Positions 9,730 to 63,663 of a DNA stretch of 64,000 bases are shown here, piece after piece. The DNA lies in contig NW_027191415.1 of assembly GCF_041146345.1 (NCBI RefSeq), forward strand, positions 1,116,001 through 1,180,000. Reading direction: 5' to 3'. The notes under the pieces are model-generated. The model saw only the letters and a list, made by a program, of their open reading frames with translations. It did no database searches and was not told the origin of the DNA. The position numbers and the translations under genes are program-made. Source of the DNA: Neodothiora populina (Eukaryota). The first letter of the stretch is position 1, and each line of letters opens with the position of its first letter.

Positions 9730-9780
9730 CTTTTCTCAGACTCTATTAGCGCTCTCCCATCTGCCTAGGAGGACCTACGG

Positions 9781-21115: not shown

Positions 21116-22418
21116 CTCGGCCGTCTTCTACAACTACTCCAACACAAAAAAAAGAAAGAGAAAACCGCAGAGAAGGAACGGTTGGTATGTGTATCTCGAG
21201 ATCAGCGGACACGCGACCGACACGCCGTAATCGGGCTGTGCTTGCGGAAAGAGACCAGAGAATGTGAGACTTTTGATATAAAAAGATCGACTGGCACGAT
21301 TTGTCTTTCGCGAGTTGTCCGCGCTTGATGAAGAAAAGATCAAAACATAGTTGTCTCTATTTCGTTATAGTGAGAGGAGGAAAAGGACCCGGGGTGGTTC
21401 AAGGGTTTTCAATGTGACTCGCGCCTAATTTGCACACACAAATGCTGCGAACCATGTGACAATAGGTATATCGTAAAAACCAAAAGGCAGTTCGGGGACT
21501 GGCCACGGTCACTAAAAGCTCGAGCGTGCCCTTTGATTTGTCTACTGCCGCCCCGCCGCATCACACACACGTACCACACACAGACGCGGATCTAAGTGTT
21601 TCTATCGACGAAAAGGGAAGTCACCAGGGATGAGTGGAGCTGGGTTCGGCGGGGCGGGTCTTGTGTGTATCTAGAGTGTGGTTGGCTGCGGACTGCATAT
21701 TGCTTGAACTAAATTCATACGTTCTTCTCGAACATAGGCGCTGCAAGGCAACGACGCTTGCCGTAGCTCCGCGGGCTAATGCCAGTCTAGCGCCGGTGCT
21801 TCGTGGTCCTGCGATCAAGCGATCCCACGTGGATGAGCAGGGGTGGCATTTTTGATTGCCTGTTATCCATTGATCTCCCAAGCAGTCGGAACTGGTATAC
21901 GAGACGAGTCCAGACAAGCCTTGTTTCCTCTTGAGTGCAAGACAGTCAATATTAGTCGGCCGTGTGGGGAGAAAGTCAAGATACACAAAAGAGCAAAAGA
22001 AGTGGACCCGGACCCGAGGTTTTGCACGGAGTTTTGACTTGGTACGAACAAGAGGTCTTACAAGCTTTCGAAGCTGTTAAGCCGAAGGTTTAATTGTTCT
22101 CGCTTGGCAACAGTTCCACCCGACTTCCACAGCTGTACTGTAGGATGCAGAGCGTGTGTTTCAGCCCAAAAGTCTATACAGAGGCCCTGATGGAAGGACG
22201 ACGACAGGGTCAACAAGCCACTATAGAGGACTGGAAAACACAGCAACAAGGAGCGAGCGGCATCTCAGTGAATTGATCGAAGATACAACAGAATCCGATC
22301 GCGGCAAGTAGACCAACTTTTGCTTATTTCCACCTGCTCCACATAGGTAGCATCTCCACCCTATCTGCTAAGGTACTGTGACTGCAAGCGCAAAATACGG
22401 CAACAGACCAGAGAAGTA

Positions 22419-22576
22419 TAAAGGAGCTCAATGTTAGTTAATGACTTCTCAATAAATGGTCGATGAGTCCCTAATCGACAGTCGATGAACCTCTCGTGAA
22501 AAGTCAATGAGTTTTGAGTTAACAGTCAGTGAAATTGCAATGAATAGTCAATGACTTTCCGATGAATGGTCAACGA
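22419..22576 (+). repeat. 22-bp-period array, forward, with terminal motif
   Basis: Units start at 22441, 22463, 22485, 22507, 22529, 22551, 22573 (exact 22-bp phase); preceded by TA-TA-AAGGAGCTC. Confidence 0.9.
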
Positions 22577-23484
22577 TGGAAAACGAGTTCCTCTGTAGTA
22601 GAAATCTCATTCAGTAGCGGGCGACGCGACTTTCTATCAAGGCGACCATGTTCCCAGCAAGGAAACAGACGCGACGGCAAACTAAAAAGAAAATCGCTCC
22701 ATGAGCTGCTGCCACCCACTGACTCGTGGGTTTCACATGCAGTCGGGTCGACTTGACTTTGACCGTGGGACTCGAAAATCTGACGCAACGTGTGTAGATC
22801 ATACAGTGACAGGGTGTGCTTTGCAGATCATCATACTCGACCGACCGAAATACCGACCTACCGACTCTCAGGTTCATGGCAGTCAGCCAGCCCAGCCAGC
22901 CATACCACGTCGCCGCAAGAGGGAGGGAACATGATGAATCCGTGCATCCGTTTCTTTGGTGTCCTTGCCCCACCCGTCCCATCCATCCACATCAATTGAC
23001 CCTCGCTCTCCACCCTCGCCTTCCCTGTTCGGCTCGTGACTTCCGAACGCCAATAAATCGCAAGGGTAGCACCTAGATTAAAAATGTGGAAATTGGTACA
23101 AGGTCACGATGTAAAATGCAGAGGAAGGGGAATCGTATCTGTAGGAGACTGCCTGGGTACCGTATGTATATGTATACGGAGCGCGCCGCAGTATCCTATC
23201 TTTCGGCATCTCCGTCGATATGCGCTCTTTGTTCTCGCCGAGGTATAAGGAGAGAAAGAGATTATGAATTCGAACAGCAGAGCAGGGTGCACGAGTAATG
23301 TCATGGCATCTTCGCAATCGACAGAAGTCTAAATTATCAAATACCCTCGAAGATCACCAGATTGCCATGGTTGACCCGATCTCGATATGAATCGAAAAAA
23401 GAGTATCTGACGTGCTCTTGCGAGAGTGCGAGGGAGGGGCCTGAAAAGAGAACCACGACTCGTACACAAAGGAACTCGTTCTTA

Positions 23485-23679
23485 GGCATTGACCATTTAC
23501 TGGGGAGTGATTGACAGTTCATGCGCTAGTCCTCGCCATTGGTTCATTGACAATTCATGCGCTATTCATTCACTGCTCGCTGAAGAGTCATTGACCATTC
23601 ATTCGGGAATCGAAGACCCTTCATGGAGGAGTCATTGCATATTCATTGTGGAGTCGTTGATCAAATCCAAGCTCCTTCG
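23485..23679 (-). repeat. 22-bp-period array, reverse, with terminal motif
   Basis: Unit ends at 23489, 23511, 23533, then (after one 14-bp step) 23547, 23569, 23591, 23613, 23635, 23657. Confidence 0.88.
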
Positions 23680-23906
23680 TAGTCAGTCGCCGACAGAAAA
23701 GCTTGGATAGCAGCAGCATTGATGATCACACACGAATTTGGGATCTATTTCGGCCGTGGAGAATAAACTTCAAGTCGTGGGGGTGAGGGCGATTATCATA
23801 TCAATCTGATCATTGTTCTACTGAATCCTGCTCGCTTGCTTCATTAAAAACGCCTCGCTCATCTAATTATACTTATTTGCTCAAAGCTCGTGGGCGGTTC
23901 GTTCTT

Positions 23907-29162: not shown

Positions 29163-32100
29163 CTAGAAATGGATGACGTTGCCCAAACCATCCCCGAGTC
29201 CAGTGACTAAGTCACCGAGGCCCTCGCCGAGGTCGTTCAGCAAGTTGTCGGCTTCTTGAGTGGTCTCGCCGACGAAGCTCAGGACGGGCTTAACGACACC
29301 GTAGAGGTTGATGGCGGGAACAGAGCCAGTGGGAAGTTGGATGTAGATGGTCGAGGTCACCGTTGTGGCTGCTCCTACGCTCGCGGTAGATGTACCGCAC
29401 ATCAGGACGGCGCCGCAGAAGCTGATGCTCTCGGTAGGTAGAGTCAAGGGATCGCTGATGGGCAGAGGCGTGACGGATGGCACAGTTGTTGGAAGCGCGA
29501 GGGCAGAAGAAGGAACGCCAGCTACAATGCTGCTGACAATACCGGAGAGGTCAGAGGAAAGAGAAGACAGCTGTGCGCCGATAGCCACGCTAGGCAGGCT
29601 GAAGGAAGGAAGAGTTGCGCTGGCGCTGATTCCAGAGGCAATGGCGGAAATCTCAGACTGAATCGAACTGACTTGGGCAGTGGGCAATGTGATGCTCAAG
29701 CTTGGAAGTAGTGTAGGAAGAGCGAGTACACTCGAGACGTCTCCAGCCAAGGACGAAATCTCTGCACCGATACTAGGCAGGGCAGGAAGAGTCTCACTCG
29801 GGAGAGCAATCGTGGGAAGAGTAACGCTGGGAAGGCCAACACTAGGAAGACCAAGACTAGGAAGGGTGACGCTGGGAACACCCGACAGAGCAGCCGACAA
29901 CTGAGACGACAAGGCCGCAATATCAGAGGTAGGAACAGTAAAGCTAGGCAGGGTAGCACTGGCCTGAATACCGCTGATGAGGCTGGAAATGTCGGACTGG
30001 ATTCCTCCCAGAGATCCTGTGGGAAGGGTAAGACTGAGCGAAGGAACTGCAGTAGGCAGAGCAAGGACGCTAGTGATCTCGGCAGAAAGCGAACCAAGAG
30101 CAGCAGTAGCGCTGGAGGGGTCAAGACTAGGAAGGGCAATGCTAGGCAATGCTGCACTGGGAAGACCAGACTCAATGCTTGCGAGTGCAGAAGACAGAGC
30201 ACCGACTTGAAGCGAAGGCAAGGTGAATGCAGGGAGTGTGGCACTGGCACTGATGCCGCTGAGGAGACTGCTAGCATCGGCCGCGATACTGCTGAGTAGA
30301 GCGGTAGGGACAGCCAAAGACAGGCTAGGGTCAATGGTGGGGAGTGCGAGAAGGCTGGTAGCTTCGGAGACGAGATTTCCGAGGTTGGAAGTGGCAGCAC
30401 CAATGACTGCGCTACCAGCTGGGAGACTTGCACCAGCAATGACGCTAGAGACCTGTGCACCCAGAGAAGAGATCGCTGCAGTTGGGACGACAAATCCAGG
30501 GAGAGTTGCGCTGGCAACGACACCACTCTCAACGCTAGAGAGCTGACTGGCCAGAGAAGACAACGCACCAGTGGGAAGTCCAAGAGTTGGTAGAGCGAGG
30601 ACGGCGCTGACATCGGATGCAGCGTTGCCCAATGCCGACGTCGCGCTGGCTACAGCAGGATCAAGATTGGGGAGTGTTGCTCCAGCCAAAACGCTTGAAA
30701 ATTGTGCGGATAGAGACGACAACTCGCCTGTGGGTAGAGCGAACCCAGGAAGACTTGCGCTCGCGACGATGCTGGACAATTGGGACTGTAGGCTGCTCAA
30801 TGCAGATGGTACAACACCAGTGGCTGTAGGGATCGCAGCACCAATCGCAGAGGTAAGGCTTCCGGCCTCAGCAGTGGCGGCTGCGAGGATCGAAGATTGC
30901 GCACCGGGAAGTCCGCTAACGATAGCGCCGACCTGGCTCTGGATCGAAGACAATTCCAACGTCGGCAAGCTTGGGAGGAGCGTATTCGATCCCAGAGCGC
31001 CAGTAATGCTCGTCAACTCGTTGGACAAGATGCTCAATTGGGGAACGTTAACAGAAACACCCGCGCTGACGGTCGGCAGGGCAAGCAAGCTCGTAACTTC
31101 AGAGATGAGGCTGCCAGCTTGGGAGGTGGCGCTGGCAACAGCGGCGCCCACAGTGCTCTGAACACCAGCAGCAACCACAGACACCTCAGAACTGATGGAG
31201 GACAGAATCGAGACGGGAAGAGGTGTAACACCTGCCAAGATAGCACTCTGGACGCTTGAGAGCTGGCCAGAGATGCCAGAAAGCTGCGGAGTTGGGACAC
31301 CGACAGCAACGCCTAAGCTCACGCTAGGAAGAGCGAGCAAACTGCTCACTTGGGAAGCAAGAACTGCCGCATCCGATGACGCGGCCGAGGCAGCAGAACC
31401 AACGGCGGCACCGGCGTTGTTACCGAGCCCGGATGCAGCGCTAGAGACCTGAGCAGCAACACTGGAGATGGCGGCGGTAGGAGCAGTGAATCCAGGCAAT
31501 GTTGCGCTGACTGCGACGCCAGATAAGATGCTAGAAAGCTGAGCGCTGATTGACGCCACAGCAGATGTGGGAAGAGCGACTCCGGGCAATGTAGCACCAG
31601 CAGCGACACCGCTGGCCAAGCTGGAGAATTGCGAGATGACACTAGATAGTGCGGCAGTAGGCAGAGCCACAGCAGTGGGGGGGATTGTTACGCCCGCAGC
31701 AATGCTGGAAACTTGGGCGGCGACACTCGAAATGGCTGCAGTCGGCACAGTGAAGCCTGGCAAGGTCGCGCTCGCCGAGATGCCCGATATGATGCTGGAG
31801 AATTGTGCACCAGCAGACGCAACAGCAGAGGCTGGGGCCGCAGTACCAACGCTAGCGAGACTGGACAGTTGAGAAGCGAGACCAGACAGAGCCGAAGTTG
31901 GAGCTGCAATCCCGATGGATGGAAGACTGAGAGTAGGAAGATTAATGGTAGGAACACTGAGACTAGGCAGGCCGACACCGGGGAGGCTGAGAGTAGGCAG
32001 CTGTGCAGCGACACTCGAGACTTGAGCGGCGACACTAGAGATTGCGGCGGTAGGTGCAGTGAAGCTTGGTAGGGTTGCACTGGCCGCAACACCAGAAATA

Positions 32101-33235
32101 ATGCTCGATAGTTGTGCGCTAGCTGATGAAACAGCGGCCGAAGGAGCACCCGCGGCAGCAAGGCTAGAAATCTGGGAGGCAAGGCCAGAGAGAGCCGAGG
32201 TTGGAGCTGCGACTACGATAGACGGAATGCTGAAGGTAGGTAAAGCAACACTCGCGCCCGGAACGCTGAGGGTAGGAAGAGCAATGCTGACGCTAGGGAC
32301 GCTGAGAGTAGGAAGAGTGACGCTGGCACCAGGAATGCTCAGAGTGGGAAGACCGAGGGTAGGGAGCTGTGCAGCAACACTCGAGACCTGAGCAGCGACA
32401 CTAGAGATTGCAGCCGTGGGTGCGGTAAAGCTCGGTAAGGTTGCACTGGCCGCAACACCAGAAAGAATGCTAGATAGTTGTTTGCTAGCAGATGAAACCG
32501 CGGCCGAAGGGGCACCCGCGGCAGCGAGGCTAGAGATCTGAGAGGCAAGACCAGATAGAGCCGAAGTTGGAGCTGCAACCGCAATCGACGGGATGCTGAA
32601 CGTAGGAACGCTGACAGCAGGGATACTGAGAGTAGGAAGCTGTGCAGCCGCACTCGAAACCTGAGCTGCCACATTGGAAATTGCAGCCGTAGGTGCAGTG
32701 AAGCTCGGCAAGGTCGCGCTTGCTGCAACACCGGACAGTATGCTAGAGAGCTGTGCGCTAGCTGCAGAAACAACAGACGAGGGTGCACCAGCAGAAGCAA
32801 CGCTAGACAGCTGAGAAGCAAGACTAGACAAGGCCGCGGTTGGAGCTGCAATTGCAATAGAGGGAAGGGTTGGAAGAGCCCCCAGAGAAAGAGTCGGAAC
32901 GCGAACACTGAGCTGCGAGCTGAGCGATGACAGAGCTGGCGCTATCGACGAGGTTGGAAGAGCAGCAGCGACTGTGACGATGGAGATCTGGGTGGTAGTA
33001 GAAACAGCCGCACTTTTGACTGTCAGTAAATGTGAGTTATGGTAGGTTCTTTCAGTTCATACCAAGTTGAAGCACCTATAGAGACGGAAACTGGCGCCAC
33101 ACTTGCTTTGCTGCTCGAGGATAATCCGAGGAGGGCGCCGAGAAGTTGACGGCGTTCATTGTTTGCATATCTTTCTGCTGGGAGAGCAAAGACTTCCAGC
33201 ACGAAGAGTGCGGTCGGTAGCCAAGTGATGCGCAT
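29163..33235 (-). CDS. 1340-aa secreted Ser/Ala/Leu/Pro-rich repetitive protein; intron 33013-33062
   Basis: Signal peptide MRITWLPTALFVLEVFA, dibasic NERR site, many PT-A(L/I)SS(L/V)ASQ(L/I/V)SS repeats with SATLPxFT linkers; splicing keeps the frame into ORF 29163..32831. Confidence 0.88.
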
Positions 33236-43698: not shown

Positions 43699-44359
43699 GC
43701 CAATTCATAGACCTACAGTCGCCATATACCGCAATTTCGATTCCAAACTAAAATCAATATTGTTCAGCCACAACGGCCTGCCTCTAGAAAAAGACAATGC
43801 TAAGCTGATGTGGAACGGGCGTTGTCCAGCACGTACATGGGGCTACGAGTGTACAGGAGTTTCCATTCGATGGCCAGGCGTCAGAGGATATATACTATCA
43901 TACATGCTTGCAGTCTTGCATAGCGTCGGTTGCTTTTTTTTCTTTTCTTTTTTTCTATGGGCGCAATTCCATTTCCATTTCCATCCGTCCTTGTAAGCAA
44001 TCAAAATGTACCTATTTTCAAGTTCTCGTTGTCCCAGGTTTCTGTCTGCCTGGGTAAAAGCTAGGCGGTAGCTAGTAGACCAAAGGGGAAGGTGTGACCG
44101 CCACAGGACTTCTTGACTCTAGCATCTCGTTCGCCAATGCCACAACGCAGTTGCCTCTCTTTGTTCCTCATCGGCAGGCTCCTCGATCCCTTCTTGATAG
44201 TAGAGGAAAGAGCGACTCGTCCGGGTAGACTGGCTGTTGATCTACTACTACCTGCAGTATTGCAATACCCTTCTTTTCAAATGATTCATGGACACGATTC
44301 GGTGTCCCATACCCATCAGTATGCGGATAAAAAAGGTTTACCATTTGCTAAGTAGTTTT

Positions 44360-44491
44360 TGGCCAGTCATCCAGGAGTCATCGATCTGTCATTGAAGACT
44401 CATCGACTATGCTACAGAAATTCGTCGACTATTCGTTGTAGACTCAGCGACTATTCATTGTGGAGTCATTGACTAATCATGAGCTTCTTGA
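44360..44491 (-). repeat. 22-bp-period array, reverse, with terminal motif
   Basis: Unit ends at 44381, 44403, 44425, 44447, 44469; then GAGCTTCTT-GA-TA (44481-44493). Confidence 0.9.
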
Positions 44492-44796
44492 TACCGCATA
44501 TTGACGGGACCGTGGAGGACATGGATGCCTGGGTTCTATGGACCGACGTTCCCTCAGCTCTGGGAGCTCTGTGAGCTGTCTAGCGTTCCCTTGTATTCAC
44601 ACCCATTTTTTCTGATTTTTCCCTTGTATCTAATTCTAACCCCCAGCCAATCAAGACGCCGACGAAAGGTAATCCATAAACTTGCACACGATGTCTCTAT
44701 CTCAGCTCTGCTCGCAAGGTCCAGCCTGGCGGAGCGAGAAACTAAAAGACCCCGAAGTTCGAAAAAAAGGAAACAACAGAGTCACAAAGTAAACCC

Positions 44797-48304: not shown

Positions 48305-48561
48305 CTTTTGTCGTTGACGTGCAAGAGAGGACTTAGAGCGTAGGGTCAAGGCGGTAGAGTGGACGTTTAGAGATTAGCGGTGAAGGAGAGAAGGCCGAGG
48401 TGTTGGTATAATAAGCAAAACAACAACAACATGCTTCGGAGATTGCGGAAGTCGTCGATTCGGCACCTCGGTGCAGCCTTGTCTATATTGCTTGACCTCA
48501 GCATTACTTCATTTGTGACTGTCCGACAATTCATGTCACGTTTACAAAGGACATCGTTTTT

Positions 48562-48780
48562 GGTCATTGACCATTCAGAGTGGGGTCATAGGAAACTGAT
48601 CAACTGTCCTTAAAATTTTCATTGACTGCTTATTACGGAGTCTTTGCCTGTTGAGTAGAAAGACATTGCCTGTTGAACAGAAAGTCGCTCCTTGTTCACA
48701 AAGAACTCATTACTTATGCATAGGGAACTTCTTGTCAATTCATTGAAAAGTCATTGACTGAATAAAAACGAAACCCTTTG
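48562..48780 (-). repeat. 22-bp-period array, reverse
   Basis: Unit ends at 48567, 48589, then (after an 11-bp step) 48600, 48622, 48644, 48666, 48688, 48710, 48732, 48754; outer GAAACCCTT-TG-TA (48770-48782). Confidence 0.85.
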
Positions 48781-49041
48781 TAGCTGGAAGGGATGTCCAT
48801 GGAATGCGACTTTCTACTCGGTCGTGCGAGATGCGACACAATTCAAGGCGCAATGAACTTTTAATCAAGACAAAAAAAAAATCTAAATCACTAATGTTGA
48901 ATAATGACTGCGAATAAACATCCGCGTCACACAATGCAATGCGCGAGACTAGACCAGCTAGATCACGCACTGCCTTTTCCTAAGCGACTTGCTCGAATAC
49001 TAGCCCTGCCAGAGGACTGACTGCTAGATCATGCTCTACTT

Positions 49042-51012
49042 TCACGAGCTACAACCACAAAACCAAGTTGAGCATCTGTGTCTGGACCGGCCATTCTGGT
49101 TGGCGTGATTGCGTCCTCCAATACCTCTGTCTTCATTTGCACTCGTACGGCCGCCCTCAGACAAGGGTGAACCATCAGTGAAATGAGACTCAGCAGTGTC
49201 GACCGAGGAAGCATTTCGCACATGCAACTTTCCCTTCTTGATAACAAACTTCTTGCTGACGAACCCAGGCGGTGTCGTTGGAGCCAGCCGCATCGGTGGC
49301 TTGGGAGCCTGTCGAGGGGTAGTGAACCATTCACTACTGCCAGTGGTGCTTTCGTGGAGAGTGAGGGGCTTACTGATCAGTGAATGGCATGATTTGCTGG
49401 CGGCAGTCGAGACCGGATTGTCAACGACTTCCCTGGACTGATCAGCGGCGATAGGTGTGACGCCTTTAGGGGGATTGGAACCGAGTGGGCGAGGATGGTT
49501 GTGACGAGCCATCAATTCCAAGCTAGCAGTTTCACGAGTTGCTCTGGAGTCAAGGACGGGTGAGGCGTACGAAGAGACAGGCTGTGATGAGCCTGCCTTT
49601 CTTTCACGAGAACGTCTTATCTCCATGTTTGCGACGACGTTACCGTCCCTGGGAAAAGTGACCAACGAACTGCCCATGTCAGGGACGAGGTTCTGAGGGA
49701 CACAGAAATCGTTGCCTAGCAGTAATCTTGTGGGCATGGACTGACAGATGTGACAGATCTGAGTGACATTAGTATACGTGATGCCTCCACCTTTACACGC
49801 ACTCCGCCTTGCTGGAACGTATAAATTCATAATAACACACTGCGAAGAACTCACGCTAGATCCGGTGATTAATGTGTAATCGAGAGACCTTCTAGCCTTG
49901 TATCGATGAGCGTAGGAAAGGTGTTGCAGAAGCCAGGATTCACTTACTAGGCTGGTTGAGGCACTTGTGTCGAGACAAGCAACCACGGGTGCGCTATTGA
50001 GTGAGAGCTGAACGTAGGTGTCCATGGAGAAACAGGTGTTGTAGGCACCAACATGGTCAATGCGGACATTCGATACAACAACCTCACGTGAAGTTGGACC
50101 GATCTGTCGACTCTCTCGATGAACTATCACTCTCCTCACTGCAGTACGTGAAGTTCTGTAGGGTAGCGTGAGCGAGATCTGTACGTCGGCGATTGAACGC
50201 GCAGGCACAACACGGGTCGAACCAAAGATACCAGGCCCCAGGGAGATGTCAGGAGCGATGATGATGAATACGTGATGCTGAGGATCCAGCCCACGCGATG
50301 GGGCACCACCATGCTCACCCTGCTTCACAGATGATGTTGAGCGTTGTAGAAGGGGAAAGTCTGGGTTTTTGTAGCCGTCCAGCTCAATCTGCGCATTACC
50401 ACATCTCCCCAGAACGGCAGTCATCGTAGGCAACAAGATGGAAACTCGTTGTGTCTCGATAAAGCCTGTGCCCAGCAGGATTGCAACCCCTCGGGGCAGG
50501 CCAATGTCGCGAACGAACAACACTGTCATGGTTTTGGCCAATGCATGTTGTCCGTTCTTCTCACAAGGAAGAAAAAGCGTCGCTACCACGTACTGGCTGG
50601 TGGCCACGAGGCCTGAGGCGGTACCAGATTCCAACGGAACAGAAACCTGCCTGATGTCAGAAGAATTGAAGTTGGTCTTTGCTTGGTAGGAGGAAATGAA
50701 GGAAGCACAAGAGGCTGTATCGAAGCAAGCAATCGTGTTCTCGCCCACAGTCTCACGCAACTTCACCTCGGCAGTGACCAACGAATGCGTGCAGTAGCTC
50801 GCCTCGATGTGTTTTGTGCCGGGGGCGGTGGATTCGATGATGCGACTACGGGAGACGGAGGATGTGTAAAGATGAGGACTACCTCTAGGCTGCGGGATGT
50901 CAAATTCGGCGGGAGGCGAGATAGAGGGGGTGGCTACAGACTCACCATCGTTGAAAGTGTCGACGAGGACAGGCTTGGAGATTACAAGAGAGCAGGACCG
51001 CGACTAGACCTT
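49042..51012 (-). CDS. ORF with two tandem retropepsin-like aspartic protease domains; start unresolved, possibly a pseudogene
   Basis: ACFDTASCASFIS..ILLGTGFI and ACLDTSASTSLVS..LLLGNDFC match the Ty3/gypsy-type protease pattern. Frame is open from 51012 with no early ATG; no RT or integrase follows. Confidence 0.65.
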
Positions 51013-51790
51013 CTACCAGAGAGGCGACGGGTCATGCTCTTGAATGTTTTGTGAATAGAACCTTGTCTCTCCATTGCGCCGTTAGTTCTCCCAGCACTAT
51101 GAGTCGAATGTTTCCTGTGAGTGAAATTGGGTAGTCGGCCAGAAGTTTATGCGATAGTGTCTCGACGGTGACCTAATCTCTGTTGTTAGTGCACCAAAGG
51201 TCGTCGTCCGGGTCCAGATGAAGAGAAGTGTTGTGAGACCTGTGTTTATATCCTACCTTGAGGGCCTCGACGTGTTGCCTTTGTTCTCTTTGATATGGTC
51301 TAGACACAAAGGCTACATCGTAGAACAACGCCATGATTGTCTTTCACTGTGCGTGACAAAGGGCGCATGACAAAAGGCGCAACGAACAATGCCACTACCT
51401 CGACTTTTGCGCCTTGACAAAGCTTGATCAAGGTAAGGTAGCCTATGCAAATACCTGAGAAAGCCTTACACAAACCAACCGTTGCGATTGCCGCGATACG
51501 ACTATCATATCCGAAGCGTCGCTTCTTTATCCTCGATCTCAACACAGCAACACGCACCATCACACCTCTTTTCAAGCATGATCCCCAACTTCAGCTGCTT
51601 ACCCAAGGGTTGGATGACTCCAGACACGCCACAAAGACACCCAGACTCATGCCCCGGCGGATGTGTAGTACACAGGGGCTCTCATTATCTTCTGTTGATA
51701 GTAATAAGGCATTGGGAGACCTCAAGGTTATCTATCAAATGCTCGGAGAAGTCTAGTTTCTTGGAGGTAGGCAACAGTCACGCTCTACTA

Positions 51791-51978
51791 CAGAGGGGCT
51801 CCTCTTTCTCGTTGTTGGTAGAGAAATCCTCAACGAGTAGTCGGTGACTCCCCACTGAGTGGTTAAGAATTCCTAATGAGTAGTCGATAAGTCTCCGATT
51901 AAGGTTCAATGATTTCGTAGTGAATAGTCGATGGCTCTCCAATCAAAGCTTAATGAATTCATGGCGAATAGCCAATCA
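51791..51978 (+). repeat. 22-bp-period array, forward, with Tc1-like terminus
   Basis: Units start at 51822, 51844, 51866, 51887, 51909, 51931, 51953, 51975; upstream TA-CAGAGGGGCTC (51789-51801). Confidence 0.88.
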
Positions 51979-52110
51979 TATTTGCCTCAACAACGAACTT
52001 GGATCGTCGCGTTGGCAAGTCACAGGAACCAAAAAACTACTAGTCGAGGGATAATGCACGTAGGAAGTCCGTAAGTCGTTAGCTTTCCGTTTGATTAGAG
52101 GCTAGTCACC

Positions 52111-53105
52111 CTATGAAGGCTTCTGGTACCCGTCAACATCAGTGCTGTTGGACAGCTTCTCAAACTTCTTGACGCTCTCTCTGTACGTGTCAAGCTTGCC
52201 GTTGATGGCGGCATACGCGTCTGTACCGACAACGCAGCGCAAGGGAGGGTCTTTCATGACAGCCAGTTCTGGAAAACGTTAGCAACTCCGTCTTCACAAT
52301 TCTCATGATATTAAGAGCGAAGAAAAGGAGCTCACCATAGAACGCCAGCGCACCCTTATGCGGATCGCCGGCCTGAGTACCATTCCTCTCGCCCATCTGC
52401 TTCTTCGCATCAATATGATCATAAGCCGCACACTTCTCCTCTCCGAAATCCATGCTTCTGCCGGCCCAGTCGGTCCTGAAACCACCAGGTTCGATGCACG
52501 TGAACTTGATGCCCCACTCGGGCTTGACCTCTTGGCTGATGGCTTCGGTGAAGCCCTCGACAGCCCACTTCGAGGCGCAGTAGACGCTGAAGATAGGCAC
52601 GCCGCGCTGGCCGCCGATGGAGGTGACTTGTTGGATCACGCCTCCCGGGGGCGAGTTGCGCTCGCGCATGATCTGCATGGCTTTGCGGGTACAGTCTAGG
52701 AGGCCGAAGAAATTGATTTCCATCTTTTTGTTTCGGGACATTAGTATCTTATAAGAAAAGAGAAATGCAGGTAAGAGAGAGGAAATGAAATACCTGTGTC
52801 CTGATCTGCTTCTCACTGAGACTTTCAAACTCGCCGCCGAGGCCGTACCCAGCATTGTTAACCACGACGTCGATGCGACCAAAGTGCTCATATGCCGTCT
52901 CAAAGGCCTTTTCGATTGACTCTTTCTTCGTCACGTCGAGGTCGACGGCGAGATAGTTCTTGTCTGTTGCGCCTTCTGGCGGCGAGAGTTTGGACGAGTT
53001 GCGTGCTGTGGCGCATACGCTGTCGCCCTTGGAGATGGCGATCTTGGTCAGTTCGAGGCCGAAGCCTGTGCTGGTTCCTGTGATGAAGAAGACGCGGGGA
53101 GACAT
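52111..53105 (-). CDS. Short-chain dehydrogenase/reductase; introns 52724-52793, 52269-52335
   Basis: TGTSTGFG, DVVVNNAGYG, YCASK, IEPGGFRTDW. Confidence 0.95.
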
Positions 53106-53668
53106 TTTTCCTGTGTTTCTTTTCTGTTGTCAAAAGAAAGAGCTGTCCGTCTTCTCTATCTACTCTATATATACCTGCCCATCATCATGTTGCATTGAGT
53201 TCACCCATCGACGTCAGTAAGACCGGGGGTAACGGACATTAGCCCGACGACGACAATACCCCAACTTTTTGACTTCCTACAGATATCTTATCGGTCGTAG
53301 TACAAAGTGTATGTGCCGGCGGCAGCAGCAACGATGATGAACGATGCATACACAGGAAGCGGGATACTATTCGATCATCTCGAACCTTTTTTTCCTATGT
53401 CTCGTGGTGACGTTTGTATGTCATCAAGTCTTCCCAGAAGGCCACCTCAGCTCAGCTAGCAGAGTGCGCCTGCTCTTGCCTGGCCTGGGGAACTCGACAA
53501 CTCCGAGGATTTGCGTACATTATTTCGATGCCACTGTCCTGCAAATAGCAAAGAAATGGCCAATCGTGGGAGTGGGAGCGGGAGCGGGAGCGTTGCCAAT
53601 TTACCATACGTAAAACATCAATACTCTGCACCGTCAAACGAATCGCCTGCTACAATGGAGCCGTCGTT

Positions 53669-53850
53669 AGTCATTGACCATTTACTGGGTCGTCTTTGAG
53701 TAGTCATTGGCCAATCATGGACGAGTCGTTGACCTTTCAGTAAGTATCTATCAGCAATTCATCAAGGACTCGTGGACTGTTCATCAGGAAGTCGTTGACT
53801 ATCCTGCCAAGACTTATCGACTATTCATTGGAATCTCATTGATATTTACG
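53669..53850 (-). repeat. 22-bp-period array, reverse
   Basis: Unit ends at 53674, 53696, then (after an 11-bp step) 53707, 53729, 53751, 53773, 53795, 53817, 53839. Confidence 0.9.
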
Positions 53851-53941
53851 ATTGCAACGATGCTTGCTCGTCGTCGAATCCGATCCAAATGAAAATGACT
53901 TGAAATCATAAAACTCGATTAAGAGATCGAAGCTGCCCCGT

Positions 53942-55744
53942 TTAGTGCGCAAATCTAAAGTCCAGTCGCTTGTTACCCTGGTCTGTCGTAGTCCGCATGT
54001 AATGATCCTTCTCCTCCTTGCTCATAGCATTCCATACCAAGTCTCTCTTCCTACACGCAATCAATTAGCTTGAGTTCATTCGTATTCTCTCTGTGGCAAC
54101 GTACCTGTTGACGTAAACATAAAAGACCTTTGTACCAACAAACAACGCAATATTGTAGCAGGTCAAGCCGATCAGCACTTTGTTTCCCGTGTAGTAGAGC
54201 GGCTTGTCCGGCGCACGGTAAATGTTGTTGCCGATGATGTTGCTTCCCTGCACAAACATATTGTAGAGCGCACTTGCCACTGTCCTGGTCCGCACAGTGC
54301 CGGCATTGCGACTCGTGATGGCGACGAGAATGGCATGCACGTAGGGCTGCGCGAAGAGAAGAATGGCTAGTACCCACTGCACCCAGCCGCTACGTGTAGG
54401 TGGCAAGACTTCAAGGGCAATCAGAAGGGGAAGGACCCAAAATTGAGAGACGGTGCAGAGGAGGAATCGCTCATTGACTCGTTCGGACACCCAGGTCACC
54501 AGAAGGAGGAGTATGATGAACAAAGCGTAGGCCGGGATGCAGAGAAGATTCGTGGTGAAGGTCCCGAAGCCGACCGCCTTGAGTGTCAGAGTCAAGTACT
54601 GTTCTGATTGTCAGCGATGCCATGTCCGCATCTAGCGATGATGGCAAGAGCAAGAAGACTTACACTCGCCATGGGAATCTGTGGAAGCATCCAGGACAGC
54701 CCAATAAGATAGATGGGCCACATGTGATAATCTTGCAGACATTTCCAGAACATGCCAAAGTCAATAGCCTGTCTGTTGTGCATGTCTCCCTTGCTAGGAT
54801 CGTCACGCAAGATTCGGTTGACCATGATCTTTTCCTCGCGTTCATTGAACCAGCCATCCTTGCCCCTGAACTTCGATGCCGTCTGCGTCGGTGAAGGAGG
54901 GACATAGAAGTACGAGATGATGCCAATGATCCCTGTAAGTGTGCCTTCGAGGGCAAAGAGCCAGCGCCAGCCAGCCATTCCATTGATGCCGGCCATGTGA
55001 AGAATGCCAAAGGCAAGAAAAGCTGAGATGATGGAGGTGCTCTGATATGCCACCCAGAACCAGGAGAGTCGCATCGGTAGTTCCGACCCAGTGTACCAAT
55101 AAGACAGGTAAAGGATATTGTCCGGGATAAACCCACCCTCGATCAAACCCAACAGTGCTCGGCAGGCATAAAAGGACGATCTACCAGACAAGAAGGCTTG
55201 CATACTTGCGACCAAGCTCCAGGACACCATCTGAATCGGAATCCAATTGTCTGGGCCGATTCTCTTCGAGATTAGTTGAGACGGGAGCTCAGCAAAAAGA
55301 AAGGTGACGAAGAAAATCGTCTGGCCTGTATTGTACTGGTTCGTGGTCATGCCTAGGTCGTCGAGCATATGATCCGAAAGAGCTTGAGAAATGTTTCCAC
55401 GATCAAGCTGAAGCGCGAAGAACATCAAGCATACCCAACTGCATATCCTGTAGTCTATCTGCCAAGATCGTCAGTACTTGAGCGTGACATTCAAAGACAA
55501 AGAACATCACCTTTCTGACGAGTTTCTTCTCCTCCTGAGGCTCCCACTCGAACGAGGGGTCAAACCTATGGATACCCTCATACGTTTCTACAGGTCTGAA
55601 GTAGCTCTGGAAAGAGTCGCTGTCGAACGGCTTGTTGCCACTTTTCGCAAACAATGTCGGCTCATCGACTGCGGCGACCGGATACGCTTTCAAGTCGGGC
55701 GTATGTTGGTAATCATCCGAGTCTGAATCTTTAATCGAAGCCAT
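53942..55744 (-). CDS. MFS allantoate-permease-family transporter, Soa1-like (probable sulfonate uptake); introns 55459-55510, 54599-54663, 54051-54104
   Basis: FFALQLDRGNISQA, AELPSQLISK, EGGFIPD..YLSYWY, RILRDDPSKGDMHNRQ, terminal KRLDFRFAH. Confidence 0.9.
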
Positions 55745-56696
55745 GGCTGTAGTGGCTACAGTCTTGCAATGGTCAAGCTTTGCCAATATAAAAGCCAAAG
55801 GATGATGGAAATCTTGGTAAAAGTGGCGCAAGTCTTCGTTATGTACCACACCAGAAGAGAACGATTTCGCAATTGCTTCACTGCGCCTATGACATATTCA
55901 GCGGGTTCGCAAAACACGGTAACAAAACCCAAGGCCAGATCCATTGCGTGCCGGAGATGGACTGAAGGCCGAGTCTCGGTATGACCATTATCCTGGTCAC
56001 TAGCAGTTCAACGAAAGATCGAAACACGCGATCCACAGTCGCTGACCAGGTAAGCCCCCACGGACAAGTCGTCGAATTGAGCATTCTCTGATCAACAAGC
56101 GGCGCGACATGCGCTCGCGACAGCCAGCACGCGGGTGGTTTTGAGAATGCGAGGTGGATGAAACACCCAAAAGGGCAAAGACAGACGCATTGCGTGATTT
56201 TATGCAAAGCTGTGTTTGGTTATGAGGATGGCGACATATGAGTTACAGCGCTCGTCAAGTCTTATCGGTATTAAAGCATTTGCATTATGGGCGCTGCTAT
56301 AGGTTGACGGACGTAAGCGAGATCCATCGACATCCGCAAACACATGCAATGTTTATAGTGATTCCCCGGAGATAGGACCAACGCCCGGTCTTGGCGAGGC
56401 CCGATCAACACCAGAGCTGTCTTAAGCCATAAACATGATATGCAGTCGTGCGAGGGGTATACCAGCTTGCGTGTGCTGTAGACGATTCGATCGTGCATGG
56501 TAACGTGGTGGTGCGGCTCATCTTTCTCCACCTTGTATCACCGAGTATCGCCACGGCCGTATGGACACGACCCTTAAAAGACTCGGGTGGCCGCCATGAT
56601 CATCGCAGGCTCTTCTTATTCAGAGCAACCTTTGATATTCCACTCTTCTTGGTCTCCGAGATAAGAAAACTGTATCGTATAAGCTTACAAAACAAG

Positions 56697-57912
56697 ATGG
56701 CTCCCGCACTCATTGAGACTCCCCAACAGACCTCAGCAGACAAGGTTGCTGAGAAAGTGTTTGCCAAGGACAAGATACAGGCGGCCTACAAAGAGGCATT
56801 TGCCCAAGATGCAAAGACCACCAATTACGAGGGCGAGCTGAATGGAGTCGGCAATTTTGCACCAGCGAAGTATCCAAACTACTTGCCATTCTGGGATGAC
56901 ACCAAGTATCCACCCTATGAGCCATTCGAGGCCTACGACCATGGCAAAGACGCCGATGCTTCGTTCTCGAGCTTACTCCAGGGAGCTGAGGTCGAGGACC
57001 TTTGTGCAAACATCGGTGCCGAAGTCAAGGGCGTCCAATTGAGCAAGCTCAGCAAGGAAGGCAAGGATGAGCTTGCTCTGTTCGTGGCACAGAAGAAAGT
57101 CGTCGGTATGTACCAAGTTTCCCGAGTGTTGGCTCTGTTGCGGTATGAATCTGACACTTCGAAAAGCATTCCGTGATCAAGACTTGGCCGATCTGCCAAT
57201 TCAAGAGGCCCTCGACTTTGCCGAGTACTTTGGCCCTTCTCACATCCATCCTGCGAGTGGAGCTCCTAAAGGATTCCCAAAGGTGCATCTTGTTCACAGA
57301 TCTGCTGCCGACACGACGGCCAAGGACTTCTTCGAAGAGAGAACTAACAGCATTACGTGGCACTCCGACGTGACGTACGAGCAGCAGCCTCCGGGTACTA
57401 CCTTCCTCTATCTTCTTGACGGACCTACGGCAGGCGGCGATACAGCTTTCTGCAACCAGGCCGAGGCCTACCGACGACTTTCACCTGCATTCCAGCAGCG
57501 TTTGCACGGATTGAAGGCAATTCATTCTGGCCATGAGCAAGCCGCGAGTGCACTTGCCAGAGGTAGCATTGTCCGACGTGACCCAGTGGCCAACGAGCAT
57601 CCGATCGTTCGTACGCATCCAGTTACTGGAGAGAAAGCTCTCTTTGTCAATCCTCAATTCACGCGTAGAATCGTGGGACTCAAGAAGGAGGAATCCGACT
57701 ATCTGCTCAAGTTCCTGTTTGATCACATTGCACTGTCTCAGGATCTGCAGGCTAGAGTCAAGTGGGCGCCGGGTACAGTGATTGTATGGGACAATCGGGT
57801 GACTGCACACACGGCCATTCTCGACTGGCAGGATGGACAGAGGAGGCATCTTGCGCGGTTAACGCCAAGGGCAGAGCGGCCTTATGAGACCCCGTTCGAA
57901 GAGAAGGCCTAG
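56697..57912 (+). CDS. Alpha-ketoglutarate-dependent sulfonate/taurine dioxygenase (TauD/Jlp1 family); intron 57106-57166
   Basis: VAFRDQD after splicing, WHSDVTYE, GGDT, HPIVRTHPVTGEKALFVN, WDNRVTAH..R. Confidence 0.95.
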
Positions 57913-58599
57913 AATGGTGCTAGGACTGCCTGATGCGTGTCTGATGTCTTTCATTTTAAAGTCCGTTCATATTGGGATATAGCTTCCAGTACACAGATGC
58001 TGTTCAACGAGTGGTTTTTCGTCTCTGACCGTGCGTGACGGGTCTGCAGAATGGCGTCCCTGTAATCATAATTCAGCGCCGGATATTGTGAGATCGCCCA
58101 TCCCGTTCGCTTAGGTGTATTGCATATTGTTTCTGCACTCTTTAGAAGCAGGATGTTGCTTGTCATGCAAAAGATTTAGTGCCTGAGTTGCTGGTTTCTT
58201 TGTCTGCAGGGCTGCGTGCTTTCCCCACTTTCAATGTCATCACTCGCTTCGACCTGCAGTGAGGAATAGAGAAAGTAGAATAGGCAGACCTGCAAAGTAT
58301 GAAACTCTCTGTCTTCCTTGAGCACAGTACTGTACATCAATCTTGACGCAAAGGATTTATTCAGTACTTTGAGCTCTGTCTTCAGTACTCGCTTCATATG
58401 TGACGTGGGGACAGGTCTTTGCTGGAGCTAAAGTATACAGCTCCACTAGAACCATTCACACGTTCAATATCCGATAAGGCGCGGCTGGGTGCTTCGACAA
58501 GTCATTAATCTAGGTTGCGTGTCCATTAGTGTTGCGAGGAACGAACCCCTATGTAATACCGTCAGACAGTCTTACGTTCTTATCAGCGAATGAATTGAC

Positions 58600-59342
58600 A
58601 TGATATCCCATTACGTCGATTGCTGGAACCGTGTTTCTAACAGGTCTCTGTCCAGGAGTATGATGCTCTTCATAGCTCAACTGCATCGAGGGCATCGACG
58701 CATTTGAGTATTATACAACGCGTGGCGTGAGGGGCTGGCTGCAGTCTGTGTTCACGAAGCGAGACTGAATTCGACTCGAATGTCTGTCTATTAACTGCGC
58801 ATGAGCAATGTACTTCGCAGCAAGGTGTTCCGCTGATGGTCCCACATCTGGCTTCAGCATATACTCTAGCTTATATAATTTAGTTTCGACGGACAAATAT
58901 GTTCCATAGGGTTGACTTGAACAAGGACATCCCTGCTTAGGAAGACGCAAAATACTCGCCAGCAGCATCAGAGTGAACTGATATTCTCATATCCTCTGAC
59001 ATTAGGAATTCCAAGGTCTTTCTTAAGGCATCGTCTGTGACCTCTTCCAGAGCAATCACAAATGAAGGGCCAGCGTGATTGCATCCGTAGACATTTGCAA
59101 ATTGCGTCTTCGCGGATGCAGGGACAGATTTCTCAATTTTCCAAGGCGACACCCTCCCCACTGGTTGTAGAGCTGCATGCTTTGTTAGAACTTACGATCC
59201 GGTTATATTGAAGCATGATTAAAAGGAGCTTGAAGCAACATCCACCGGACTCCTCGTTCACTTTGTGCCATTCTTGTCCTGGAGCACTTCCATTTGTCCA
59301 TGCTGAGCTGTTGATCATATTTGTTGAGTAGTAACTAGCCAT
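58600..59342 (-). pseudogene. Degenerate coding remnant, possibly BTB/POZ-type
   Basis: Overlapping broken ORFs with IALEEVTDDALRKTLEFL, KLYKLEY and YEEHHTPGQRPVRNTV; weak resemblance only. Confidence 0.3.
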
Positions 59343-59403
59343 TCGATCCTTATGTTATTGATCAATCTTTCTTCTGCTTACCTTGAGAATATACTAAGGA
59401 GAA

Positions 59404-59519
59404 TGACCGTTTACCGGGCGGTCGTTAGCTAGTCATCAATGAGTCATTTATCATTGACCGAAGACTGATTGACGAATCATTCAGGACTGGGCAGTCATTG
59501 GCCAAGAACGAGTCCTTTA
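59404..59519 (-). repeat. 22-bp-period array, reverse, with terminal motif
   Basis: Unit ends at 59425, 59447, 59469, 59491; first unit tgaccgtttaccggg; outer GAGTCCTT-TA-TA (59510-59521). Confidence 0.85.
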
Positions 59520-59810
59520 TAGCCAGTGTTTCTCGACGATTGTTTTGGCTTGACAAAGGGTAAGGTGTGGCGCAGTAAACCGTTGTAGTATTCGTCCGAT
59601 CTCTAGCCTGTTAGAGGTAATTTGGTTTCCCCTCTTCACGACGTCATGGTCCACTCACGTCAGTAAAACTCTCGTCCCGCTTGTACCTTACAGAAGTAGG
59701 ACCATTCACGTATATGACCCCCAGATCCACTTGTGCTGATCTCTCCACGTCTTCAATAATAACAACCTACCAATTATACAAGTACAGACCACACAAAAAC
59801 ATCCGGCAAT

Positions 59811-60249
59811 ATGTACATTCCCACTCCCCAGAGCATCCTCACCGCTGGCATGGCCCTATCGGGTGCTATGATCAAGCGTGCGTATCGCCACTATCTTCTG
59901 GTCTGTTACAGGTCAACTAATTCATCAATCAGCCTCCTCCGTTGCATCCGGCAAGATCCTTGACTTTGCTGTCGAGAAGTGTATCGACGCCGATGGCAAT
60001 CAGCGTTGCAGCAAGCCGTTCCTTGTAACAAAGTCTACTTGCTACAACATTGAGTGGACCACCGAGGGAAGACTTTCACACACAACAGTCGAGGTGCGCG
60101 ATGCAGGCAGTGATGAGCTCGTTTTCTACCGTGATACCGACGGTGAATGGACACCCGAGAAGGGCGAGTTGGTCTACCTTGACTTCAAGCCCAAGGTCTG
60201 GAAGACTGGCAACGACACTGTGGAGTACAAGGTCAAGACTTGCGAGTAA
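59811..60249 (+). CDS. Small (127 aa) probably secreted 4-Cys protein; intron 59878-59932
   Basis: GTGCGT..CTAAT..CAG intron joins MYIPTPQSILTAGMALSGAMIK-P-SSVASGKILDFAVEKC in frame. Confidence 0.8.
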
Positions 60250-60941
60250 AGTGTTGAGCAGCATATTGTGTTCTTTGCATGTCTCAATTGAATGGGTTTC
60301 ACTGGAGTCTGGATTTGCATTGCTCAGCCGCGAAGCATTCTAAATAGCCCGTTCAATTTTAAGATGACTGTTATCTCGTACTTGTAATATGTGCATACTG
60401 TGTATGCCACTGTTCACATCAACTCCATACACGTCTCTATCTTGGACTATCATCTGAACAAACTCTTGAGCATGTCTGTCGTCTTCGTCCTTGCTGTAAA
60501 CTGCTGTCTTGAGCAAGGTGTTTTGCCTGCCATCGGGGTAGTTTCCCCGGATCTACTGACATCATCGTTAAGCAGACCCTTGAAGCCAAAAGTCTCATTT
60601 CTTTTAGTCAAGGCCTTTCCTTCTTCGGGCATTCGCACCGACTTCTAACACGAGCTTCTGGAGCAACATTTCCATCATGTAATATCCGCCTGTTTGACAC
60701 ACTCAAAACCCCATCTCTTCTACAAATCATCGTCATCGACTGCTATTTGTGCCTGTAAATCCGCTTCTGCTCCAAAACGCTCGGCGGGCTCGCCATTAGA
60801 TGAAAAACTTATTGGTAGGTGAGGTGATACAATGTAGGTGCTCTGTCTGCACGTTCTCTGCTTTCTCCTTGTCTGTTCGAAAAACAGAGAATCAATGCTG
60901 CGACTACCATTTTAACAAATGGCACTCCCAGTCTGTTCCTT

Positions 60942-62662
60942 ATGACCTGTGATCACGAACTGGAGCTGCCTTTGATGTCCAATTTTGTCGCACTGCAAGA
61001 ACCTGTCGACATGGATCATAAGACTGGTGAAAAGGTAGAGGAGCTGTCCTGGAATGGCGACAATGATTCGCAGAACCCGATGAATTGGCCTTCTGCCAAA
61101 AAGTGGACGGTAATGCTGACGGCGACTTTCATGTGAGCTTCTTCATGGAACCACAAAGCATGCATCCGTCACTGATTAAATATGATAGTATGTTCGTGGT
61201 AGAATTGAATGCAACCTCAATCACATCTGCGGCAGTCGAAATCAACGAGATATTCTCCGTCTCGGACGACAGCTTTCCCAATAGCTACTGGCCTGTGACC
61301 TCGTGGACTTTCGCCGGCGCCATCTTTCCCATCATCCTTACTCCCATCATTGAAGATCGTGGCACGCGTCCAGGATTTCTTCTGACTTATGTTCTCTTTG
61401 CGCTTTTCGTGATTCCACAAGCAGTGGCTCACAACTTTGCTACGCTCATCGTTACACGCGCTGTAAGTGGAGCTTGTGGCGCAACGATAGCAGCGATTGT
61501 TGATGGCATTGCGGCCGATCTGTGGACGGAAGAAGGCGAGAGAGGCCGAGCAGTCACCGTGTATACCTTCGCTCTTGTGGGCGGATACACAGTAGGACCA
61601 GTCATTGGTGGAGCTGTCATCAGTGAACTTGGCTGGAGATGGATCTTCTACATCCAGCTAATCATCTACTTTTCGCTTCTGCCGCTTCTTTATCTTGTGC
61701 TTCAGGAAACAAGAAGCCCGGTCGTACTGACGGCGCTGGCACGTAAGCTACGGCAGGAACCACCTGGTCGACAGATCTACTCGCCCGCAGAATTGGCATC
61801 GACGAGTACATGGCAAGACCTGAAAGAAGGTCTGGTACGACCGACACAGCTCCTGTTCACTGAGCCTGTTCTAGCAAGCTTCACCCTCTGGTCTGCGTTC
61901 ACTCTCGGCATGATCTTTGTTTTCACGCAGTCTATCCCCCAAGTCTACACCGGATTGTATGACTGGTCGTCGTCCTCGACAGGCGTTGTTCAGATTGCAG
62001 TCTTTATCGGTCAATTCATTGGCTTTGTTGCCTGCTGGATTGCCAACGACATATACATACGCCGAAATCGCGCACCTCACAGCGATGCAAGGCTTGAGAC
62101 CCGTCTCTATCTCTCTATCCCGTCAACAATATTCGCCTTGTCCGGCGGCTTCTTTGTGTATGCATGGACCTCTTCGACTTCGTCTATTCACTGGATTCTT
62201 CCTACTCTCGGCCTCGCTCTTGTCGGCTTCGCCTCGATGGTGATTGTCACGGCTGTCGACATTTACATCACCGACTCGTACGCTAAATATGCGGGCTCAG
62301 CCATAGCGGCAGTCACATTTGGTGAAAACACGTTCAGTGCGTTCCTTCCTCTTGCGACACAGAGCATGTATTCCACGCTAGGCTTTCCATGGGCGAGCAG
62401 TCTGCTGGGGTTCGTTGGGCTGGCACTGGTGGTGGCGCCTATTGTTCTTGTCTGGAAAGGAGAGGCAGTCAGAGGGAGGAGTCGATTCATGAGTACTGGT
62501 CAATTGCTAGGGAGCAAAGCCGAAGAAGACGGCATGGACAGAGACGCACCATCACGTCCAAACCTGGCTCCTGTCGCTCAGAGGAAGAGCAACGAGACAG
62601 ACGATGCGAGTGTGTCTTCGTCGCGGACGTTGGTAGGTAACACGGCGATGGCTACAGTATAG
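60942..62662 (+). CDS. MFS drug:H+ antiporter (DHA1-like); intron 61133-61188; start uncertain
   Basis: WNGDNDSQNPMNWPSAKKW, GPVIGG..GWRWIF, ETR, RPTQLLFTEP, YITDSYAKYAGSAIAA. Confidence 0.92.
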
Positions 62663-62846
62663 AGCACACAATCTTACAATTTTCATCTTCAATCATTAAC
62701 GAAGTTCTCTGAAGTGATGTTACAGAGACGCGACACCCCCTACCTTTGACTAATGCGTTACTGCCTCCCGAGGCTCGACAATCGCTCGACTTGCGCATGC
62801 ACACACCCAGACTCACCTACCGATCAGGTCCCTCGTTTAGTACGCT

Positions 62847-62965
62847 AAGGGCCTCGTTATTGGGCAATGACTCCTAAATGAATAATCCATGAGTCCCTGA
62901 TGAATGGTAGATGAGTCCCTGGTAAATAGTCCATGAGTCCCTGATGAAGAGTCGATGACTTCTTA
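62847..62965 (+). repeat. 22-bp-period array, forward (best conserved copy)
   Basis: Units start at 62867, 62889, 62911, 62933, 62955; ATGAGTCCCTG occurs three times; upstream AAGGGCCTC at 62847. Confidence 0.95.
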
Positions 62966-63041
62966 AAGGCACGCAGCTGGACTTTGCCGTATCTCAAGAA
63001 TTTGCTACCACGAAACATGACTGTGACATCTCCAGAGGTCC

Positions 63042-63498: not shown

Positions 63499-63663
63499 TG
63501 TGTTGTGATCAAAAGCACGAATCACTGATCAAAGAATTCAAGGTAACGTGATTGATATATCTTTATGGTGATCTTGAGGTCTTTGAAAGCAAAGTTTTTG
63601 AAAGCGAGGAAAGAAAAGCGTGATCAAAAGATATTATAGCCGAGTTCACAGCCTCAAGTGCAG

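Follow-up and report, generated by a model that had tools for sequence, protein, structure and literature searches.

Arrays of phased 11-nt units in a 64-kb stretch of Neodothiora populina are probably relics of a short non-coding mobile element, each copy having inverted ends of its own

A 64,000-nt stretch of Neodothiora populina DNA (contig NW_027191415.1, positions 1,116,001 to 1,180,000; hereafter the window) contains dispersed arrays of short repeated units, several of which have an outer end that begins at a TA dinucleotide. The question raised by this locus is whether such an array is one arm of a larger transposon or an element complete in itself. An initial annotation had taken the arrays for the long modular terminal inverted repeats (TIRs) of an old non-autonomous family. 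Our analysis retains the part of this proposal that sees relics of such a family and departs from the long-TIR architecture: the arrays probably represent a small, non-coding mobile element in nine decayed copies, each of them whole, similar to a miniature inverted-repeat transposable element (MITE), and equipped with inverted ends of its own.

A profile built from the arrays recovered nine copies in the window with nhmmer (E-values from 1e-23 to 1e-45), four on the plus strand and five on the minus strand; besides these, the search of the 64 kb gave only weak matches. The arrays are 130-240 bp long and are spread over 22.4-63.8 kb, with no copy in the first 22 kb nor in 24-44 kb of the window, E1 and E2 being the sole copies in the first 44 kb. 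Two of them, E53 (53651-53843) and E63 (63634-63777), are arrays without a clear outer motif and are additional to the seven ends reported initially. The copies and the associated features are as follows.

E1, 22417..22597, plus strand: complete copy of 181 bp, running from TA to TA with 16 in-register 11-mers (16 x 11 nt between the TAs); E-value 3.9e-44.
E2, 23463..23681, minus strand: complete copy of 219 bp, outer end at 23681; E-value 1.3e-45.
E2 inner terminus, 23463-23480: TA placed 2 nt further out than usual.
E1-E2 spacer, 22598..23462: 865 bp between the two copies, with no other copy in the window.
E44, 44335..44493, minus strand: outer terminus with TA at 44492-93; inner terminus not recognisable, the boundary near 44335 being approximate; E-value 4.2e-38.
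E48, 48543..48782, minus strand: complete copy of 240 bp with the best inverted-terminus pair of all copies; E-value 9.5e-39.
E51, 51789..51988, plus strand: outer terminus at 51789, inner terminus not recognisable; E-value 1.1e-36.
E53, 53651..53843, minus strand: inner terminus TA-CA-ATGGAGCC at 53651, outer terminus missing or degenerate; E-value 7.2e-44.
E59, 59392..59521, minus strand: short copy of 130 bp with TA at each end; E-value 3.2e-23.
E59 inner terminus: degenerate, reading TA-CT-AAGGAG, with the core at 59396.
E62, 62841..62970, plus strand: outer terminus with TA at -6, inner end missing; E-value 7e-32.
E63, 63634..63777, plus strand: inner terminus at 63761-63777, outer terminus a weak likeness only; E-value 7.9e-28.

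The seven outer termini of the initial annotation were all located and read as given there. They are TA-TA-AAGGAGCTC at 22417 (plus strand), TA-CG-AAGGAGCTT at 23681 (reverse complement), TA-TC-AAGAAGCTC at 44493 (reverse complement), TA-CA-AAGGGTTTC at 48782 (reverse complement), TA-CA-GAGGGGCTC at 51789 (plus strand), TA-TA-AAGGACTC at 59521 (reverse complement), and AAGGGCCTC at 62847 (plus strand), which is without TA at -4 and has TA at -6. The terminus motif, TA-YA-AAGGAGCTCGTT, occurs at the outer end and, in inverted form, again at the inner end of one and the same array. To examine the inner ends, we trained a weight matrix on the seven outer ends alone and scanned it over both strands, that is over about 128,000 positions. 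The inner ends of E63 (63772, minus), E2 (23469, plus), E48 (48547, plus) and E1 (22593, minus) ranked 3, 5, 10 and 29, all in inverted orientation; rank 1 was the outer end of E62, which is a training site, and three unrelated sites (42946, 57322 and 34597) were also among the top 10. The inner termini of E53 and E59 are weaker and were found by eye. The inner end thus carries the inverted motif in six of the nine arrays (E1, E2, E48, E53, E59 and E63), and the motif is present at 13 of the 18 ends, with both ends recognisable in E1, E2, E48 and E59. In an ungapped comparison, the termini of E48 agree at 15 of 18 positions and those of E1 at 12 of 18, while those of E2 need a 2-nt gap. The presence of the inverted motif at the inner ends indicates that an array is a self-contained element and not the arm of a long modular TIR.

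Within E48, inner-type and outer-type terminus motifs stand back to back at 48693-48711 (copies near 48693-48700), and this copy of 240 bp may consist of two short units in tandem. Another terminus-like motif near 58551 (matrix rank 27) was considered as the end of a tenth element and rejected, there being no array alongside.

The alternative, in which the arrays are long modular TIRs, would join them into larger non-autonomous elements of foldback or inverted repeat/direct repeat (IR/DR) type, one at 22417-23681 (1,265 bp) and one at 51789-53843 (2,055 bp), the remaining arrays being solo arms left by deletion; in a milder form, two MITEs would have moved together as a composite. There are indeed two adjacent pairs that face outward, E1/E2 and E51/E53, and the only copies in the first 44 kb, E1 and E2, lie just 865 bp apart. 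Yet the same terminus is found inverted at the inner ends, and the inverted similarity of E1 and E2 (best match 57 nt, 74%) ends precisely at their inner termini (22596 and 23466). The arrays E44, E48 and E59 are without an inverted partner in the window, and two of these, E48 and E59, have termini at both ends. The arms of one element might be expected to be more alike than other copies. The copies as a whole are diverged, with a mean pairwise identity of 0.57 (standard deviation 0.05, range 0.49-0.66, 36 pairs, profile columns), a figure that must in part reflect aligned non-orthologous units; against this mean, E1 and E2 are slightly more similar (0.62), but E51 and E53 are less so (0.51), and the outward-facing pairs are no more alike than others. 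Furthermore, E51 and E53 flank a spliced and expressed host gene for a short-chain dehydrogenase, and the 865 bp between E1 and E2 recur nowhere in the window.

A comparison with related fungi bears on the same pair. The open reading frame (ORF) for replication factor C, which adjoins E2, retrieved 80 metagenome loci of related fungi (655 kb) with 72-75% identity to the window in coding DNA, and four of these loci (L003, L059, L065 and L068) keep the neighbouring genes in the same order. The spacer that holds E1 and E2 is 2.87 kb long in the window versus 1.1-1.7 kb in the four syntenic loci, and the difference of 1.1-1.8 kb is near the 1,265 bp of the pair, although spacer lengths are weak evidence at this level of coding identity. 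The 865 bp themselves contain short ORFs only, none of them convincing, and no match to a Pfam domain, an RNA family or a transfer RNA (tRNA); a bacterial-type promoter and terminator scan is uninformative for a fungal spacer. Rfam and tRNA scans of the entire window gave no matches, and therefore neither the arrays nor this spacer are known RNA genes. This spacer is intergenic DNA of the ordinary sort, or else it is cargo carried by a composite element. Taking both sides together, we regard it as unlikely that the arrays are arms of larger elements, and prefer to read each of them as a whole, MITE-like copy.

All nine arrays are built of phased 11-nt units that form a 22-nt pair, a TGAATAGTC-type unit alternating with a TGA(C/G)TCC-type unit. 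Tandem Repeats Finder (TRF) reported period-22 arrays at four of the nine copies, and the repeats are best preserved in E62, with 3.7 repeats of 22 nt. When 22-mers were tiled along each array, the match was 0.42-0.71 in the best phase and 0.37-0.45 in the phase shifted by 11, and the remaining phases gave 0.22-0.24. Arrays of this kind far exceed what chance would produce. In E1, 9 of the 16 in-register 11-mers start with TGA, and across the copies the TGA and GTC positions are the most conserved within the unit, with the reservation that aligning periodic sequence favours conserved-looking motif columns. A TGA every 11 nt closes all frames on the array strand, and the copies are non-coding. 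The initial annotation had also described, for five copies, a distance of exactly 11 nt between the terminus motif and the first AYGACT, and this agrees with what we find, the distance being present in five of the seven ends (E1, E2, E44, E62, and E59 if the motif is counted one base shorter); the distance is 15 nt in E48, and E51 has no AYGACT within 80 nt. The inner terminus itself appears, from its letters, to resemble a TGAGTCC-type unit.

A different tandem array, at 9772-9903, has a 33-nt unit in 3.5 copies with 65% matches; it is composed of 11-nt sub-units like those of the MITE and its terminus, on the minus strand, and the MITE profile matches it weakly (E-value 0.0037, 9786-9889).

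The claim of a defined, conserved outer end beginning at TA is borne out by the alignment of the ends on their core. Positions -24 to -6 carry no information above noise; it then increases at C(-5), T(-4) and A(-3) and remains high through the core (10 end rows, with the row for the right end of E59, E59-R, set 10 nt off). Of the 18 ends, 10 have TA at -4 and another three have it at -5 or -6; E1, E48 and E59 are bounded by TA on both sides, and in E2 it is offset. It is followed directly by CA in 5 of 10 ends, and preceded by C in 6 of 10 (with the E59-R row replaced by the correct flank). The sharp drop in conservation at the TA, which the initial annotation had proposed to look for, is present in the window ends and also in a further copy, located on a different contig of 25,166 nt in the same assembly and partly present in RNA-derived contigs. 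The end of this copy reads core, 3 nt, TA, and then sequence unlike the flank of E44; therefore the drop at TA is shared by a copy that lies outside the window. Together with the nine copies in the window, this amounts to at least 10 dispersed copies in the assembly.

We envisage each copy as a complete element (130-240 bp) in which imperfect inverted termini, about 14-18 bp long, read TA-YA-AAGGAGCTCGTT inward from either side, with a non-coding body of phased 11-nt units and TA at both boundaries. This matches a MITE in its anatomy: the copies are short (130-240 bp, where the usual limit is about 800 bp) and non-coding, they have terminal inverted repeats, and they are dispersed and numerous. 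They would have spread by cut-and-paste with a transposase encoded elsewhere in the genome. As noted initially, the window contains no transposase, a transposase domain being absent from all 121 of its ORFs of at least 110 aa. The TA would be the duplicated target, pointing to the Tc1/mariner/pogo group, and the phased units may have served as extra binding sites for the transposase, and the copies would differ in length because units of 11 or 22 nt were gained and lost. Today the copies are probably immobile.

The TA at both boundaries and the CA start fit the Tc1/mariner/pogo group, of which the family is a candidate member judging by its ends. A MITE family of another superfamily (for example hAT, PIF/Harbinger or Mutator-like) might show the same ends if the TA were the start of the terminus, and the true duplication had decayed or was of another length. 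The position of the TA is invariant relative to the core, as would be expected of a terminal base pair, and the C before it in 6 of 10 ends hints at conservation one base further out; subterminal repeat arrays are, moreover, typical of hAT, CACTA and Mutator ends. Nevertheless, no direct repeat longer than TA could be seen by eye to flank E1, E2, E48 or E59, save for the 5-nt TACGA at E2, which as a direct repeat would cut into the E2 terminus, and the CA right after TA in half of the ten ends fits a TA|CA... cut site. We assign a low probability to another superfamily.

Several observations weigh against the interpretation of the arrays as whole mobile elements, and the mobility of the family is itself something that we infer. 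The terminus is not recognisable at 5 of the 18 ends (inner ends of E44, E51 and E62; outer ends of E53 and E63). By itself, the 12-nt core shows no enrichment in the window: at up to 2 mismatches it occurs 9 times versus 6.0 +/- 2.4 in Markov shuffles, and at up to 3 mismatches 71 times versus 58.7 +/- 8.1, even if 6 of the 9 best core matches are located at array ends. A fixed TA at both ends fits a target-site duplication and a terminus that starts with TA equally well. A single 11-nt register is kept from terminus to terminus in roughly half of the arrays (E1, E44, E53 and E62, from a reading of the printed rows), which means fewer indels than simple neutral decay suggests and could reflect a constraint on phasing. 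Finally, six of the nine copies lie 180-310 bp downstream of a stop codon, five of these six in the sense of that gene, and such a placement is also expected of a host element at gene 3' ends.

Two public runs hold the DNA of the window, both of them from the source sample, and one of these bears on the position of the copies relative to transcripts. Over positions 44001-64000, the contigs of run X2 (labelled 'DNA?') join over six gaps of 54-70 nt with GT..AG or CT..AC ends; they carry A-tails, and adapter-like letters occur at contig ends. From the gaps and the A-tails we conclude that the run is RNA-derived and that the genes are spliced as in a filamentous ascomycete. Bins that X2 leaves uncovered were given no weight as evidence on the arrays. 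E44 starts 54 bp past the end of a transcript contig (44281) that carries an A-run, E51 ends 73 bp past the end of the dehydrogenase transcript contig, and E63 lies within the minus-strand RNA-derived contig piece 63409-63799. All copies are intergenic, except one within the untranslated part of a transcript.

These positions lend themselves to a second alternative, in which the arrays are host cis-elements, that is phased rows of protein-binding sites near gene 3' ends (terminator-proximal, insulator or regulatory) that either were never mobile or are MITEs recruited by the host. A spacing of 11 nt is about one helical turn, and the register is unshifted in about half of the arrays despite a mean identity of 0.57. 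That TGA and GTC are the best-conserved positions of the unit would be in keeping with a binding site, and the TGA(C/G)TC unit is one that we take to resemble half of a Gcn4/AP-1 bZIP site; the alignment of periodic sequence, though, favours conserved-looking columns of this kind. The preference for sites past stop codons, mostly in gene sense, and the proximity of E44 and E51 to transcript ends point in the same direction, but the bias in orientation alone (5 of 6) is not significant (P about 0.11). Moreover, the arrays occur in both orientations, are absent from the first 22 kb and from 24-44 kb of the window, and possess inverted termini and TA at both ends.

The related fungi speak against such a host element as well. 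In the 80 loci (655 kb), the array profile gave no match even at E-values up to 10, and TRF found no period-22 arrays, versus four in the window; none of the four syntenic loci has an array. Fixation at orthologous positions across species, which the initial annotation had named as an outcome that would favour a host cis-element, is thus not what these distant relatives exhibit. Because the relatives are distant, the absence excludes an old conserved element and not a young host element. Overall, we hold a host cis-element to be unlikely.

A further proposal would combine features of a mobile element and of a binding platform. In it, the body of the element is a working, phase-constrained protein-binding platform with a dozen or more sites one helical turn apart, and the termini are inverted copies of the site. 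This reading would explain the kept register as well as the position just after stop codons, mostly in sense. Multi-site ends are known from the bacterial elements Tn7 and Mu, and in one version the platform would give a cut-and-paste transposon of eukaryotes a new multi-site end architecture, in loose analogy to these; in the other, the host would have co-opted the family as elements adjacent to poly(A) sites. We advance this proposal tentatively and think it unlikely to be correct. The simpler view, a family of decayed MITE-like copies, remains the one that we favour.

In its anatomy the element is of a known kind, a MITE, with a body plan that is unusual for fungal MITEs. Stowaway-like families and the mimp family of Fusarium, which are Tc1/mariner/pogo MITEs, have TA at their boundaries and a terminus that is often CA after the TA, and are small and non-coding; the copies described here are similar in all these respects, having TA at both boundaries, CA after TA, a small size and no coding capacity. 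To our knowledge, an internal phased array is not a feature of Stowaway-like or mimp families, and in the open-access literature, as far as our search terms reached, no fungal MITE composed of phased 11-nt units came up. IR/DR Tc1-like elements, which together with foldback elements were the comparison made in the initial annotation, have short repeats next to the outer terminus. Tetris of Drosophila virilis, described as a foldback-type element, has tandem repeats of about 220 bp inside its TIRs (PMC4079207), and as in Tetris, short repeats are here stacked by a defined outer terminus. Foldback elements have their arrays as the two arms of a single element (PMC4079207); here, in contrast, the arrays are closed individually by inverted termini, and most of them have no partner.

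In the element DTC84 of the clam Donax trunculus, the core repeats are described as numbering five at most and as being accompanied by a microsatellite segment, with a putative duplication of AA (PMC3879986). DTC84 and the pearl-like elements share with the present copies a central tandem array of variable copy number, flanks with short inverted repeats and a conserved terminal dinucleotide (PMC3879986). The likeness is one of architecture only, in that a central tandem array lies between inverted-repeat flanks. In contrast to DTC84, the copies contain 11-20 units of 11 nt in 22-nt pairs, have no microsatellite, are bounded by TA and reside in a fungal host, and their inner terminus seems to resemble one of the units (PMC3879986). 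Among fungi, Epichloe festucae is reported to contain 13 degenerate MITE families with a moderate preference for 5' genic regions (PMC3227409). As with those MITEs, the copies in the window are short, non-coding, degenerate, restricted to a lineage and intergenic near genes, some of them in neighbourhoods of secondary-metabolism type, with autonomous parents that may be absent or decayed (PMC3227409). Unlike the Epichloe MITEs with their 5' preference, six of the nine copies lie just after stop codons, and the abstract on the Epichloe families makes no mention of a body that consists entirely of phased 11-nt units (PMC3227409).

If the interpretation as whole elements is correct, the locus reveals a dense, lineage-specific MITE family of an ascomycete, with nine copies in 41 kb of gene-rich DNA, several of which are only 50-300 bp away from the end of a transcript. 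Families of this type can provide regulatory sequence, substrates for recombination and strain markers, and the combination of an 11-nt body with unit-like inverted termini would make this one a simple system for studying the origin of internal repeats in transposons. For annotation, the arrays would best be masked as single short elements; joining them into elements with long TIRs would swallow host genes, as in the case of the dehydrogenase gene that E51 and E53 enclose.

The window is ascomycete DNA, with a G+C content of about 50%. The domain matches of its ORFs include Vps39, Utp12, a double bromodomain protein, replication factor C, a metacaspase, TauD, MFS transporters, the short-chain dehydrogenase and a fungal rhodopsin-type domain, and the protein-atlas clusters closest to a 505-aa MFS transporter ORF are from Ascomycota. 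A search of metagenomes with the ORF at 49042-50529 found no relatives, and a search of a phage collection gave no match.

A small spliced transcript lies at 59779-60380 on the plus strand. Its intron spans 59878-59932, and it ends in a clear poly(A) tail at 60380; its contig depth of 131 is the highest in the stretch compared with the X2 contigs. It contains an ORF (59872-60246) without a Pfam match, and E59 sits 258 bp upstream of the 5' end of its contig. The window also harbours a second dispersed repeat, unrelated to the arrays: 3533-3734 and 17069-17272 share, in inverted orientation, about 200 bp (73%), and a piece of about 120-150 bp is common to 3777-3904, 5064-5221 and 18688-18837 (73-77%). 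On the minus strand, a very long open frame of 1,297 aa without a Pfam match occupies 29166-33056; it contains internal repeats of 15, 21, 36 and about 270-600 nt, in a region where the G+C content reaches 0.58 and both GC and AT skew are strong.

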